From Octopus vulgaris (Eukaryota), in contig OX597831.1 in assembly GCA_951406725.2 (NCBI GenBank), forward strand, positions 6,014,001-6,078,000: a stretch of DNA of 64,000 nt. Direction: 5' to 3'. A program made the position numbers and the translations under genes. Under the pieces are notes generated by a model. That model made no database searches, was not told the DNA's origin, and saw nothing but the letters and a program-made list of their open reading frames with translations. Every line of letters begins with the position of its first letter. Position 1 is the stretch's first letter. Below are positions 9,950-51,750 of the stretch, one piece after another.

Positions 9950-9987
9950 CTGTCCAAAGAACAGTCACATGAAACTCTGAGTAACAG
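9950..9987 (+). ncRNA. Degenerate hammerhead-like remnant (H3-related)
   Basis: CTGT-CCAAAGA-...-GAAA-CTCTGAG-TA-ACAG: stem I and the palindromic stem III are retained, core G5 and stem II are decayed. Confidence 0.45.
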
Positions 9988-10162
9988 CTTGTGAAGAGGC
10001 TTAAAAACTTTTTTCAGCTTTAATAAAATAAGTGCCTTTATATAAGTATAAATGTAATGTATATGTACATAAATACATATACACATACATACATTCATAT
10101 ATATACACACACACACATACACTCACACACACACACACACATATATATATATATACATACAT

Positions 10163-10790
10163 AGGCACAGGAGTGTGTGTGGTAAGAAGCTTGCTTACCA
10201 ACCACATGGTTCCGGGTTCAGTCCCACTGTGTGGCACCTTGGGCAAGTGCCCTTCACTTTCGCCACGGGCCAACCAAAGCCTTGTGAGTGGACTTGATAG
10301 ACAGAAACTGAAAAAAGCCCATATATATATGTATGTATGTATATATATATATATATATATATATATATAAGGGGAAAGTTTACGAAAATAAACAAAAGAC
10401 GAAGGCAGGTGGAGTACAAACAAACAAATGTATTAGTATAGCGCTCAGGAATAGAAAAAGTCTTTTACGTTTCGAGCCTATGCTTTTCGACAGAAAGATA
10501 CACAGAAAAGAAACAAGGAAGGAAAAAATGCATGTAGGAGCTAACGATCTATATATATATATATATGTATGTATGTATGCATTTGAGTCTGTGTTTGTCC
10601 CCCCACCATCGCTTGACAACTTATGTTGGTGTGATTATGTCCCCATCACTTAGCAGTTCAGCAAAAAGAGACCGATAGAATAAGTACTAGGCTTACAAAG
10701 AATAAGTGCTGGGGTCGATTTGTTTGACTAAAGGTGGTGTTCCAGCATGGCCACAGTCAAATGACTGAAACAAGTAAAAGAAAAGAATAA
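10163..10790 (+). mobile_element. SINE family B with an H2 element inserted in its internal (TA)n
   Basis: B 5' half at 10163-10320 and B 3' half at ~10580-10790, separated by (TA)n, H2 and (TA)n. Confidence 0.88.
10371..10550 (-). mobile_element. H2 non-autonomous hammerhead-bearing element
   Basis: Minus strand 10461-10498 reads TCTTT CTGTCGA A AAGC ATAG GCTC GAAA CG TA AAAGA; flanked by (TA)n. Confidence 0.75.
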
Positions 10791-11749
10791 AAGATGGCAC
10801 GGGGGCCAGTCAGGCAGGACCTCGCTCGAATCTTTTTACATGTGCCGGTGGCATGTGTAAAAAGATCCGAGCGAGGTCATTGCCAGTATCACCTGACTGG
10901 CTCCCGTGCCGGTGGCACGTAAAAGCACCCACTACATCCTCAGAGTAGTTGGCATTAGTGAGGGCATCCAGCTGTAGAAACTCTGCCAGATCAGATTGAG
11001 CCTGGTGCAACCATCTGGTTCACCAGTCCTCAGTCAAACCGTCCAGCCCATACCAGCATGGAAAACAGACGTTAAACAACGACGACGAGGAAATGATATA
11101 TATATATATATATATATATATATATATATGTATATGTATGTATATCGATAGATACATACATACATACATAAACAGACGGACAGACAGATAGATAGATACG
11201 TGGTGGGTGTTGACTCATCAGACAAGACCATCGATGACAAGTTAACTTATTTGTTTTGTCAGTGACCATGACAAAATGGATATTCAAAGCCAGAATATGA
11301 CTTGCATTTTTTTTTAAATATTCATAATCATGAGTTACAATTAGTTACTCATTCTGCACAACACCTTGATCGTTTACTTTTATGCACCTTTTGAGTCAAG
11401 ATTGGCTGGAAAATACCTTGCCACAGTAAATCACATGTCAACAAGAAGATAGATAGAAAGATAGATAGATAGATAGATAGACAGATAGATAAAAAGATAG
11501 ATAGATAGATAGATAGATAGATAGATAGATAGATAGATAGATAGATAAAAAGATAGATAGATAGATAGACAGACAGATAGATAGAATAGATAGATAGATA
11601 GATAGAGATATACAACCAGTCATCCATCCGCATACATACACACAATCACATATATTCATATATAGATAACTACAGATACATACACATACATACATACATA
11701 AATACATACATACATGCATACACACACACACACACACACACATATATAT

Positions 11750-11920
11750 ATACAGAAAAACAAAAGACAAAGGCAGGTGTATGAACAACAAACAGGTGTA
11801 TGAACAACAAGCAGGTGTATTAGCTTGACGCTTGGGTGAGAAAGTCTTTTATATTTTGAGCCTATGCTCTTCAACAGAAAGGAATATGAGGAAAAAACAG
11901 GGAGTGAGAAAATCAAAGGG
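11750..11920 (-). mobile_element. H2 element, degenerate
   Basis: Minus strand 11845-11882 reads CCTTT CTGTTGA A GAGC ATAG GCTC AAAA TA TA AAAGA (G12 lost). Confidence 0.65.
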
Positions 11921-12169
11921 GCATAAATGGCATACTCCGAATGAATAAAAAGGTGATGTGATACAATGGTAGAGAGAAATCCAAGAATAAGGTATTCCAA
12001 AACAGTCGGAAGGACAGGACTGGTCCATGTGAACATGTAGTAAACTGTTAATTCAAATAAACAACAATTAAAACAGAAAAGAAGAAAAAAACGAATGTAA
12101 AGATGTATATACATTTATATATATATATGCATGTGGGTGTGTATATATATATATATATATATATATATA

Positions 12170-48271: not shown

Positions 48272-48984
48272 TATATGGCACATAAAAAGCACAATTCGAG
48301 CATAGTCATTGCCAGTGCCACCTGACTGGCTCCCATGCCAGTGGCATGTAAAGAGCACCATTCAAGCGTGGTTGATGCCAGTACCGCCTGACTGGCCCTC
48401 GTGCTGGTGGCAAGTAAAAAGCACCCACTACACTCTCATTAGGAAGGGCATCCAGCTGTAGTAACTTTGCCAGATCCGATTGGATCCTGGTGCAGCCTTC
48501 TGGTTTGCCAGCCCTCAGTCAAACCGTCTAACCCAAGCCAGCATGGAAAGTGGACGTTAAACAACGACGACGACGACAATGATGATGATATATAAATGAA
48601 TATGTATATCATCATCATCCTCCTCATCATCATCGTTTAACGTCTGTTTTCCATGCTAGCATGGGTTGGGTAGTTTGACCGGGGTCTGGGAAGCCAGGAG
48701 GCTGTGCCAGGCTCCAGTTTGATCTGGCAATGTTTCTACAGCTGGATGCCCTTCCTAACACTAACCACTCCGTGAGTGTAGTGGGTGCTTTTTACGTGCC
48801 ACCGGCACAGGGGCTGGAGGTAGCTAGCAAACGGCCATGATCAGTTGGTGCTTTTTACGTGTCACCGACACGGATGTCAGTCAGGCGGCGCTGGCATCAG
48901 CCATGTTTGGATGCTGCTTTTTACGTGCCACCAGCATGGGTATCACAACTACAATTTCCATATTTCCAATATTCGGCATATTTT

Positions 48985-50030
48985 GCTTTAAAAGTTCTAT
49001 AAAGGCAACAACATAAAGGAAAGTGCAAGGAAGATTAATGCAGTATACGGGGATCAGACAATAAGTGTAAGCCAGTGTCAACGGTGGTTCCAGAAATTCC
49101 GAGCTGGAAACTACAGTCTTGTCCTGGAAGATCTGTAAAGCTTGACAAGGATGTCCTGCAAACCCTGGTGGAACAAAATCCCATCGTAACTGTTGAGGAA
49201 CTTACAGAGAAGCTTGGATTTGGTCATTCAACCATTCATTGACACCATTCATGCCATCGGAAAAGTCAGCAAATTGGGTCAATGGGTTCTTCACAAACTT
49301 TCTAAGTTTAATCACGTGCAGAAAGTGAATGTGTGCTCTTCTTTGCCGTCATGTCTTTCAAATGAACACTTTTGGACCGATCAGTGACTGGTGTCGAGAG
49401 ACGGGTTCAAGAATGTCAAGTGCTGAAGATAGTGGGTGGAGAAAGGAGAAGCACTGTCACCCCAGGCTAAAGAAGGTCTTCACCCACATAAAGTGTTGTT
49501 ATCTTTTTGGTGGGATATGATAAGTTTAGTCCACTTTGAACTTTTAAACTCAAATCAAACGATAACAAAGGAGATCTACTGCAAGCAGCTTACACGGCTT
49601 AAGTCAGTGCTAGAAGAAAAGCGACCATCCTTGGTTTCAAGACGAATGGTGTTCTTCTATCAGGGTAACACTTGGTCACATTCAGCAAGGATCACATTCC
49701 AAAGGCTGGAGGAGTTTGAATGAGAAATGATGCCCCACCCTCCATATTTGCCAGACATTGTCCCGTCTGATTATCATTTATTCTGCACTCTTCAAAATCA
49801 TTTGGATGGAAAAAATATGAATTCTGTAGATGAGGTGAGAACAGTACTGGAGGAGTATTTTTCGTCACAGACAAGTGAATTTTGGAAGAGGGGCCTTGCA
49901 AGCCTACAAGATAGATGGAAGAGCATTGTAGAAAATGAAGGAGTGTATATTTTAGATTAAAAATGAAATTTGTTTATCTTAATTTTGAAAAATAAAAGAG
50001 GTATAAAAAAGACTGCATCATGTATAGGAT
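48985..50030 (+). mobile_element. Mariner (DD34D) transposase remnant
   Basis: GQWVLHKL, LHPHKVLLSFWWD, FYQGNTWSHSA and PHPPYLPDIVPSDYHLF..ENEGVY; frameshifts and stops. Confidence 0.88.
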
Positions 50031-51317
50031 GATCCAATATATATATATATATATGGTATGTATGTATGTATATTTTTTGCATGTTTATTCCTAACTAACA
50101 CTTCTTTTGATGCTGTTGACACCACCAAATTGAATGGTACTGCCCAGGTGTCAAAACCATAATGATATCGATGGGGCAGCTGATGATGGAGGTAAACTGG
50201 ATTGTTGGTATGGCTGTTTTTGCATATGTGGAACAGTGTTATAACACATTCTTTTGATATATATATATATATATATATCATCATCATCATCATCGTCATC
50301 ATTATTTTAATGTCCATGTCATGTTCCATGGGGGTATGGGTTAGGAGAATGTTTTAATATTTATTAATAATCATTTCTCATATATCTCTATACAAGTCCC
50401 TTATGATTTATTTTCAACAATGCCGTCATTATCCCACAAAGCCCATTCTCTCCAACCTAATTCCATAGTTTATTCCACAGGTGTTTAGTGCTGTGTTTTA
50501 TTTGTACATCGCTATTAATAAATCTTCTATAACCAATACATCACCATCACCATCATCATCGTGATCATCAGTATTGTCATCGACATCATCATCATTTTCA
50601 TCATCATCATCATCATCATCATCATCATCATCATCACTTAACATCTGTTTTCCATGCTGGCATGGGTTGGACGGTTTGACGGGAGCCGGCAAGCCAGAAG
50701 ACTGCACCATGCTTCACTCTATGTTTTGGCATGGGTTTTACTTGTTGCTGAAATGAGTGGATCAACAGGAATTCCATTTCATCCCCGTAACTTAGTGGTT
50801 CGGCAAAAGAGACCGATAGAATAAGTACTAGGCTTACAAAGAATGAATCCTGGGGTCGATTTGTTCGTCTAACGGTGGTGCTCCAGCATGGCCGCAGTCA
50901 AATGACTGAAAGAAATAAAAGAGTAAAAGAGTAACATGTCTGAATCAGCCATAATGAACCTCAATTAATTTATTTCTTCAGGTAAACACCACACCTGGAA
51001 CCTTCCCCATGCTGGATCTGGAACTTACAGCGCATCTTGAAACTACGAGCTGGCATGCATGTCTATAATTTCATATGCATGCTTATATGAATGTGTATAT
51101 TGATTTATTAATGTGCATGTATATGTAAGTGTTAGGACATGTCTCTGTATGCATTGATGTATGCATAAGTGTCAGGATAGGGTATATACACAGATATGTT
51201 AATCTCAACACTGACTTGTTGCTTTATTATCAATATACACACACACACACACACACACATATATATATATATATATATATATATATATATATATATATAT
51301 ATATATATATATATATA

Positions 51318-51532
51318 CTTTATTTAAAGCAGCAGAAAATTCAACAAAATCTGTTACTCTGAGTTTCTCGTTGCCGTTCATCAGACAGTTTTTGCTATGA
51401 ACGGCAATGAGAAACTCAGAGTAACAGATTTTGTTGAATTTTCTGCTGCTTTAAATAAAGCATATTACTCTACCACTGGTATTTGAGTACTCTTTTTTTC
51501 CACCTTGTTTCACATTTATGTGTTTACTCCGG
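51318..51532. mobile_element. H3 inverted-repeat element, second copy
   Basis: Minus-strand HHR at 51351-51388 reads CTGT CTGATGA A CG GCAA CG A GAAA CTCAGAG TA ACAG (canonical core). The plus arm is 5'-truncated at 51397; same 3' extension as the 17086 copy; in (TA)n. Confidence 0.8.
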
Positions 51533-51629
51533 TATATATATATATATATATATTGATAATAAGGCAACAAATCAGTGTTGAGATTAGCAGATGCTATATG
51601 GTGATGATGACGATGATGATGATGACAAG

Positions 51630-51750
51630 TGTTCCTTTCTGTCGAAGAGCATATGCTCGAAATGTAAAATGCTTTCTCACTTCCTGAGTGTTAAACTAAT
51701 ACATCTGTTTGTCTTCGTCTTTTGTTTTTTTTTTTTTGTAAACTCTCACT
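51630..51750 (+). mobile_element. H2 element, truncated
   Basis: 51636-51669 reads TTT CTGTCGA A GAGC ATAT GCTC GAAA TG TA AAA. Confidence 0.7.

Follow-up and report, generated by a model that had tools for sequence, protein, structure and literature searches.

Hammerhead ribozyme motifs in an Octopus vulgaris genomic window are terminal repeats of coding Penelope-like retrotransposons, one family of which carries a tRNA-like module

We analyzed a stretch of 64,000 nucleotides of the Octopus vulgaris genome (contig OX597831.1, positions 6,014,001 to 6,078,000, in the following called the window) in which an earlier note had listed short elements with hammerhead ribozyme folds, grouped into the families H1 to H5. 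We found that the motifs come from coding Penelope-like retrotransposons (Penelope-like elements, PLEs), of which they form the terminal repeats (pLTRs) that bear the hammerhead. The apparent community of ribozymes is what ordinary coding PLEs, here of three clades, commonly leave as a short product, and it is known in kind: single minimal hammerheads derived from PLE ends, in massive numbers, have been described since 2014 (PMC4209133). Hammerheads as such are expected in PLE-rich animal genomes; what is added here is their scale and their clear connection with three clades of PLEs. New is a tRNA-like module together with a TTTT-free unit in a coding PLE, family H1. The literature searched, which did not extend to Repbase, Dfam and several supplements, describes no coding PLE with a tRNA module, and the families H1 to H5 may already be deposited in Repbase, Dfam, or the supplements or repeat library of a paper. 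A 2026 paper on Octopus vulgaris repeats counts 190 PLE families (6.83%), with ribozymes unmentioned in the part of its text available to us (PMC13282606).

All 15 listed positions carry a minimal type I hammerhead motif or its remnant, as the earlier note had it. Seven folds in the window satisfied a strict descriptor of type I (C-N-G-N-N-G-A, stem II, GAAA, self-complementary stem III, UH, stem I'), compared to an average of 0.24 and at most 3 in 100 block-wise local dinucleotide shuffles. Their C3 positions are 26684, 38727, 43850 and 51639 on the plus strand and 51384, 43392 and 40604 on the minus strand. The remaining eight motifs fail because they are decayed by point changes or are remnants: G8 is changed to A at 26276, GAAA to AAAA at 28481 and 11845, and stem II or III is broken at 10461, 32412, 17119 and 17195. 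A 3-nt loss that removes H17 and stem I' recurs at the H1 cleavage site (L023, L069, L082, L085 and window position 28481) and may reflect slippage or a ribozyme-dead subfamily.

For a genome sample we took 80 evenly spaced 10-kb stretches (800 kb; 864 kb with the window added) of the assembly, which comprises 2.80 Gb in 227 contigs. The 800 kb contained 21 descriptor matches versus 0–4 in 10 shuffles. This amounts to about one fold per 40 kb, or about 24 intact-looking folds per Mb, and extrapolates to roughly 70,000 in the genome. The density of one fold per 4–5 kb given in the earlier note is a local one. The sampled folds represent more families than the five of the window, and the palindrome of their stem III measures 4 to 12 nt. 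Further hammerhead families with a long stem II and a palindromic stem III of 6–12 nt, none of them in the window, were seen at L157, L171, L181, L192, L200, L202 and L226.

When the palindrome rule was removed from the descriptor, we obtained 29 matches in the 864 kb versus 3.3 per shuffled set. Among these, the pair G10.1-C11.1, which the descriptor does not require, was enriched (17/29 versus 2/50 shuffle matches), as was a palindromic stem III (13/29 versus 3/50), features that also served Cervera and de la Pena as evidence (PMC4209133). An extra base after A9 was mildly enriched only (20/29 versus 18/50). G10.1-C11.1 and the extra base are both present in H1, H2 and H4; stem II of H3 has 2–3 bp and lacks the G-C pair, and in H5 the extra base is located 3' instead. 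Judged from the sequence, stem III cannot close within a monomer, as its loop is 0–1 nt long. In cofolding, H3 and H5 paired the stem III palindrome intermolecularly, whereas H1, H2 and H4 did not. Minimum free energy folding of monomers and homodimers did not recover the active fold of H1, H2 and H4, and we do not count it as evidence. In an Rfam scan of the window no hammerhead family was found among the best 150 of 359 matches, and those 150 were microsatellite-driven noise.

Overall the motifs resemble the PLE hammerheads of PMC4209133 in their minimal type I fold, extra base after A9, G10.1-C11.1 pair and palindromic stem III, and likewise in the presence of many families per genome, mostly as single motifs of truncated PLEs, with opposite-strand pairs 100–700 bp apart. 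They differ in that the extrapolated density exceeds the 2,000–9,000 per genome reported there and in that U occupies core position 6 in H2 as a trait of that family (8,936 matches to an exact 27-mer, control 0). The part of that report available to us describes neither a cephalopod nor a tRNA module.

The link to PLEs proposed in the earlier note is borne out by coding partners: the ends of H1, H2, H3 and H5 are common to copies bearing an open reading frame (ORF). One of 30 H1 loci (L016) ran into a nuclease ORF, and 30 loci were then picked by their endonuclease region. In 28 of these a match to the hammerhead region lies directly downstream of the stop codon, and 26 carry the tRNA-like module. 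Locus L321 holds a near-full H1 element with N-terminus, DKG, reverse transcriptase (RT), CCHH-type nuclease, module and hammerhead. In L008 and L321 the H1 hammerhead region is in frame with the N-terminus and overlaps the coding start. The H1 RT matches Pfam RVT_1 (E 9.5e-10, on L073) and 160 database proteins. The H1 nuclease has the CCHH pattern and no Zn linker, and aligns with a relative that bears GIY-YIG according to Pfam (E 7e-9). A C-terminal nuclease following the RT and sharing the repeat was found for H1 (L321, L073, L067) and H3 (L326) and in partial ORFs of H2 (L098) and H5 (L245, L248).

For H2, the nuclease was reached by 4 of 30 pattern-picked loci and by the random locus L161, with a CX4CxxC linker in L098 and L099. 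For H3, 3 of 30 upstream-extended loci reach a nuclease, and L326 (C6:85259501-85269500, 899-4448) is a complete element consisting of hammerhead and tail, an intact ORF of 711 aa, an untranslated region (UTR) of 1.07 kb, and again hammerhead and tail. Its ORF shows the motifs RWK, DKT, CxxC and CxH and no CCHH. This Hydra-type PLE sits inside the 3' part of a Neptune-like element. For H5, 2 of 30 loci reach a Hydra-like coding sequence, of which only nuclease and thumb parts are visible. Layouts of the type pLTR-ORF-pLTR, or partial tandems as in PLEs, are present in L326, L325, L376, L379 and L389.

Judged by these motifs, H1 appears to be Poseidon-type, H2 Neptune-type, with Nematis as an alternative, and H3 and H5 Hydra-type. 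The H3 and H5 partners resemble the Hydra clade in RWK, DKT, a C-terminal nuclease without CCHH, CxxC, CxH, (TA)n targets and the hammerhead, and the H2 partner resembles the Neptune clade in its CX2-5CxxC linker and CCHH-type nuclease (PMC8557442). The Naiad clade, to which the (AT)n targets had been tied in the earlier note, does not apply. As far as the source describes them, Naiads have an N-terminal nuclease, lack canonical hammerheads and persist only as remnants in cephalopods (PMC8557442), whereas all partners here combine a C-terminal nuclease with a hammerhead. H2 to H5 insert into (TA)n, and such targets are reported for Hydra and Neptune too (PMC8557442).

H4 is related to H2, with about 72% identity over the ribozyme region, and may be non-autonomous. 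A Neptune-like family (L202) was tried as the partner of H5 and rejected: an H5 match occurred in 1 of 30 loci, far downstream. Its members L261-L290 are young Neptune-like PLEs (96–98%). In the 1.5 kb that follow the nuclease we found no hammerhead core common to them, and both copies that were inspected there terminate in (TA)n after about 350 nt.

In the window the copies are arranged as follows (RNA polymerase III is abbreviated Pol III).

26223..26524, minus strand: H1 inverted 5' copy lacking the 3' tail, with tRNA-like module (26446-26520), (AAT)n and a G8>A hammerhead.
26446..26520, minus strand: candidate Pol III promoter in the H1 pLTR, a tRNA-Arg-like A/B-box module.
26522..26804, plus strand: H1 direct copy that includes the module's first ~20 nt, (AAT/AAC)n, the start of the ORF and a 3' tail; intact minimal hammerhead (C3 26684, H17 26719), in frame with the PLE N-terminus.
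28115..28576, plus strand: H1 copy with short 5' inversion, module at 28124-28198, interrupted (AAT)n, decayed hammerhead, no tail.
10369..10547, minus strand: H2 copy (putative Neptune-type PLE end), stem II damaged, 3' end at (TA)n.
11792..11910, minus strand: H2-subfamily copy, GAAA>AAAA.
32319..32464, minus strand: H2 copy, core decayed.
38653..38858, plus strand: young H2 copy inside (TA)n, 99.5% to the ORF-linked L099, intact (C3 38727, H17 38754).
40491..40629, minus strand: H2 copy passing the descriptor (C3 40604).
51629..51732, plus strand: H2 copy passing the descriptor (C3 51639).
44139..44221, plus strand: additional H2 3' fragment without ribozyme, absent from the earlier list; second fragment at 44301-44359.
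17081..17341, plus strand: H3 insertion (putative Hydra-type PLE end) with (TA)n flanks; inverted tail-less copy 17081-17173 (minus), direct copy with 60-nt tail 17184-17341 (plus).
51313..51537, plus strand: H3 insertion; inverted copy 51313-51397 (minus) intact with C3 51384, direct copy with core deleted and tail kept.
43255..43450, minus strand: H4 copy, H2-related, no ORF partner found, intact (C3 43392, H17 43366).
43793..44010, plus strand: H5 copy (putative Hydra-type PLE end), intact (C3 43850, H17 43900), 3' end at (AT)n.
9942..9993, plus strand: old H3-related remnant (77%), core eroded.
36497..36555, plus strand: remnant matching none of the families; it retains the 5' half of the core, GAAA and a stem III like that of H3/H5, lacks the cleavage side, and is without a further match in the window and the 800-kb sample.

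A foreign fragment of ~120 bp lies at 28250-28370 in the (AAT)n of an H1 copy, and other H1 loci have insertions there too. H5, H2 and H3 copies are frequently located back to back in one (TA)n tract (L232, L235, L257, L299 and window 43793-44221), as expected from their shared target.

The short copies carry the marks of PLE insertion. In every family the 3' end is fixed at 60–130 nt past the cleavage site, a tail is optional, and an inverted tail-less copy is often present at the 5' side, the combination known as the PLE insertion signature (PMC8557442). For H1 the inverted upstream copy was found in 19 of 30 loci, 18 of these tail-less. The distribution of 5' ends was assessed for H1 on 30 loci picked by an internal 20-mer and thus blind to the 5' end: 21 begin at -7 to +4 of the module start, 3 extend to about -20, 5 start internally and 1 runs into the ORF. 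An exact 20-mer from within the module was counted 5,148 times and one lying about 40 nt further upstream 947 times, even though the latter is kept more often in ORF-linked copies (10/30 versus 4/30 for the module 20-mer). For H3, 24 of 30 copies begin at -18 to -9 of C3, where the query, starting at -9, disfavoured shorter copies, and all 14 H3 matches in the random sample and the window begin within 21 nt. The 5' ends of H4 appear tightly clustered as well; those of H2 and H5 are more spread.

The H1 module is located about 55 nt after the stop codon and, past (AAT)n, ~30 nt ahead of the next ATG. It matches the A box in 11/11 and the B box in 10/11 positions with a spacer of 33 nt, when compared with the SINE (short interspersed element) consensus printed in PMC8969392. 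It aligns best with tRNA-Arg(TCT/TCG) of the genome (z 7–8 versus 2–7 for the other isotypes; 30 tRNA loci, six isotypes). We did not find it heading any other repeat: in all 10 matches from unrelated loci and the window, what comes next is AAT and/or H1 sequence or a different inserted element. No A/B module stands at the H1 position in any of 80 metagenomic relatives; an A/B box in L404, 480 nt upstream of a truncated ORF, looks like a neighboring SINE and was rejected. A scan of the metagenome with a single protein gave no matches. With their A/B-box head and its 33-nt spacer the short H1 copies resemble a tRNA-derived SINE, but they form no lineage distinct from the coding partner: the majority letter of short and ORF-linked copies differs at 1 of 75 and 1 of 170 columns, both polymorphic, and the two groups are so alike that no separate SINE lineage has to be assumed. 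A separate tRNA SINE with a PLE tail was therefore rejected, as the module lies inside ORF-bearing copies and there are no diagnostic columns.

For a Pol III unit the absence of T-runs was predicted beforehand and then tested on H1. The sense strand is free of TTTT over 2,610 majority columns from the N-terminus to the tail (median depth 26). In the ORF (753 codons) 4.6 would be expected from protein and third-position composition (P=0.005), and phenylalanine is encoded by TTC and TTT in a ratio of 14:6 compared to a C:T ratio of 71:74 for the other NNY codons. TTTT is likewise absent from 7 of 7 short H1 units with tail. It is not depleted in H3 (17 versus 14.2 expected), in the Neptune-like L202 family (5 versus 4.2) or in the H2 and H5 fragments. 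As controls served the 80 metagenomic relatives, of which 73 had at least 300 usable codons and 7 were dropped. Their median ratio of observed to expected TTTT is 0.98, and T-runs between stop codon and hammerhead occur in 11 of 13 relatives with a downstream hammerhead.

We consider it likely that the short copies are pLTRs of coding PLEs left as stretches from the transcription start to a priming site, and that in H1 the start is set by the tRNA-derived Pol III module. The promoter would lie in the pLTR, as in other PLEs, where transcription starts in this repeat (PMC6765202). The element's own protein would prime reverse transcription internally, a little beyond the hammerhead, as the Poseidon protein of Anolis does, which also explains the tail (PMC11167929). 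An RNA starting in the pLTR would hold a priming site at most 150–300 nt from its 5' end and would mostly yield short copies that extend from its start to the priming site met first; if priming took place in the downstream pLTR, 5'-truncated ORF copies would result. Going by the literature, the ribozymes would fold only as dimers via the palindromic stem III, probably with help of the protein. Insertion of PAc, a Poseidon element of Anolis carolinensis, does not need cleavage (PMC11167929). In H1 a simple tRNA-(AAT)n SINE may have landed in the pLTR and taken over transcription, whereupon T-runs would have been lost from the unit. The clustered 5' ends of H1, H3 and H4 suggest that many 'solo' PLE hammerheads are start-to-priming-site products and not random truncations.

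Pol III transcription of H1 is a prediction from its sequence, and the strength of this proposal depends on which RNA is considered. That Pol III makes at least the short H1 RNA seems to us rather probable. That it transcribes the full-length template of 2.7 kb from the captured tRNA promoter in the pLTR, spinning off tens of thousands of SINE-like copies, is a tentative possibility to which we give somewhat less than an even chance. In that case H1 would be a coding, telomerase-related retrotransposon in which LINE-like parent and SINE-like offspring (LINE, long interspersed element) are one sequence. Coding retrotransposons are assumed to depend on RNA polymerase II (Pol II), as stated for elements with long terminal repeats (LTRs) in PMC10886601, and H1, if this holds true, would be an exception and would reveal how a coding element can turn into a SINE with no SINE master of its own kind in between. 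In addition, H1 makes two open PLE questions testable, the transcription start site and the purpose of the ribozyme.

Several observations weigh against this interpretation. As to the PLE assignment, Pfam shows no GIY-YIG in the H1 and H2 fragments and nothing in the H3 ORF (E 0.1), and for this reason the clade labels are drawn from motifs. The CxCX5C linker of the Hydra clade (PMC8557442) is only partly present: three H3 copies have C-x-F-X5-C, and the first C is missing in the H5 copy. H4 has no ORF partner, with an own ORF upstream in 0 of 17 matches. The core of H2 has U6, and in another hammerhead a change of A6 reduced the activity (PMC3088659). As to the transcription start, H3 and apparently H4 5' ends cluster without a tRNA module, and clustering alone is therefore no sign of Pol III. 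Copies of H1 bearing the N-terminus (L376, L379, L383, L389, L397) run through the module position from upstream, and the 5' pLTR of L326 extends at least 110 nt upstream of the H3 short-copy cluster; read-through templates thus exist, and not every template starts at the cluster. ARAGORN calls no tRNA in 29 of 29 module-bearing loci or in the window, and Rfam finds none on L133. As to the T-runs, 3 of the 73 control ORFs have zero TTTT, and the one with P<=0.01, L407, is TTTT-free (0 versus 3.6 expected) yet without a module. Depletion in L321 has P=0.054 under a first-order Markov null and P=0.095 under a shuffle of its own codons, and the single H1 copy L073/L322 is not depleted. RNA reads are uninformative either way on the H1 start: when ~6% of the reads from each of 3 raw RNA-seq runs, of an organism under the same label, were placed on one H1 copy linked to an ORF, mate orientations were equal, no start or end pile-ups were seen, and depth rose toward the hammerhead as it did in the contig run. 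The relative in L407 (2218-4252 of a metagenome contig) is the closest metagenomic relative of the H1 RT (50%) and has a T-rich UTR.

A plainer account would be 5' truncation of ordinary Pol II PLEs, in which copies end at hot spots of fold-back or template switching and the module of H1 is a passively captured SINE without promoter role. Such truncation is typical of PLEs (PMC8969392), the H1 junctions lie on a small quasi-palindrome and the H3 junctions on a 4-nt palindrome, and the spread ends of H2 and H5 and the TTTT-free ORF of L407 fit as well. We regard this explanation as rather unlikely, since H1 copies without a 5' inversion also begin at -2 to +1 (L002, L126, L129, L378) and H1 drops 5- to 13-fold within 40 nt. 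It also leaves unexplained why TTTT is missing from ORF, UTR and pLTR only in the family bearing a module.

Alternatively, Pol III might make only the short H1 RNA, from the module to the tail of a solo or 3' pLTR, while the full template and the mRNA are made by Pol II and the T-free ORF is due to chance or composition. Here the depletion across 753 codons, rare among the relatives (1/73), and the lack of a separate short lineage speak against a scheme that accommodates the TTTT-free short tailed units and the P values of 0.05–0.1 under the weaker nulls for the ORF. Uncapped RNA is poorly translated, which also favors Pol II for the mRNA. Moreover, the processivity of Pol III is held to limit such elements to ~1 kb (PMC10886601). 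On balance we find this division of labor doubtful.

The view of the earlier note, five independent non-autonomous families or retrozymes spreading via self-cleaved circular RNA with PLE enzymes acting in trans, is improbable. Most copies are indeed short and non-coding, H4 lacks an ORF-linked copy among its 17 matches and has tight 5' ends, and retrozymes have been proposed as PLE derivatives (bioRxiv 10.64898/2026.07.22.740005). Yet four of the five families continue into their own ORF, the short copies have the sequence of coding-element ends, and the ends of the copies lie upstream of stem I and 60–130 nt past H17, not at the cleavage site. The motifs are minimal and not of the canonical type of retrozymes (PMC7229834). 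Non-LTR retrozymes share with them short non-coding hammerhead repeats related to PLE pLTRs but are defined by tandem arrays of at least two hammerhead units and circular RNA (PMC7229834; bioRxiv 10.64898/2026.07.22.740005). The window contains no such arrays, and the fetched loci are singletons, inverted pairs or PLE-type partial tandems, no genome-wide search for tandems having been made. Finally, an RNase P-type cleavage at the 5' edge of the H1 module, acting as an RNA structure, would fit its tRNA origin and the copies that begin exactly at +1, but it is very improbable because most clustered copies retain 2–6 nt upstream of +1, no cloverleaf is recognised and the loss of T-runs is left unexplained.

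Returning to the proposed start of H1 RNA in its pLTR, the closest parallels are found in three systems. With PAc, H1 shares the overlap of hammerhead and ORF start, the lack of a Zn linker and the optional tail, which in PAc stems from two internal RT start sites; it differs in the A/B module upstream of the ATG and in the lack of TTTT (PMC11167929). An Anolis protein, not necessarily PAc, is among the matches of the H1 RT (P0053, 40%). The TRIMp3 elements Cassandra, Helenus and Ajax likewise have a Pol III promoter, originating from a gene for a small RNA, in the terminal repeat, with a proposed origin by SINE insertion; they are non-coding LTR elements of 0.3–1.3 kb with tRNA or 5S promoters, whereas H1 is a coding PLE of ~2.7 kb, and the author argues that their autonomous partners must use Pol II (PMC10886601). 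Sm-alpha and Sj-alpha of Schistosoma combine a Pol III promoter and a hammerhead in a short repeat, but are non-coding, tandem and canonical in their hammerhead, with no coding parent of the same sequence in the account given by PMC6765202, in contrast to the short H1 copies, which are the end of their own coding element.

Outside the hammerhead elements, much of the window is made up of two repeat families, a very abundant SINE-like family of ~380 bp (51792-52168 and about 20 other places) and a second family of ~280 bp (e.g. 10838-11130). Decayed LINE reverse-transcriptase fragments are located at 31264-31746 (minus strand) and 56564-56947 (plus strand), putatively CR1/L2-like and RTE-like. 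At 1065-1460 (plus strand) an open frame ends in a C2H2 zinc-finger motif and is possibly an exon of a host gene.

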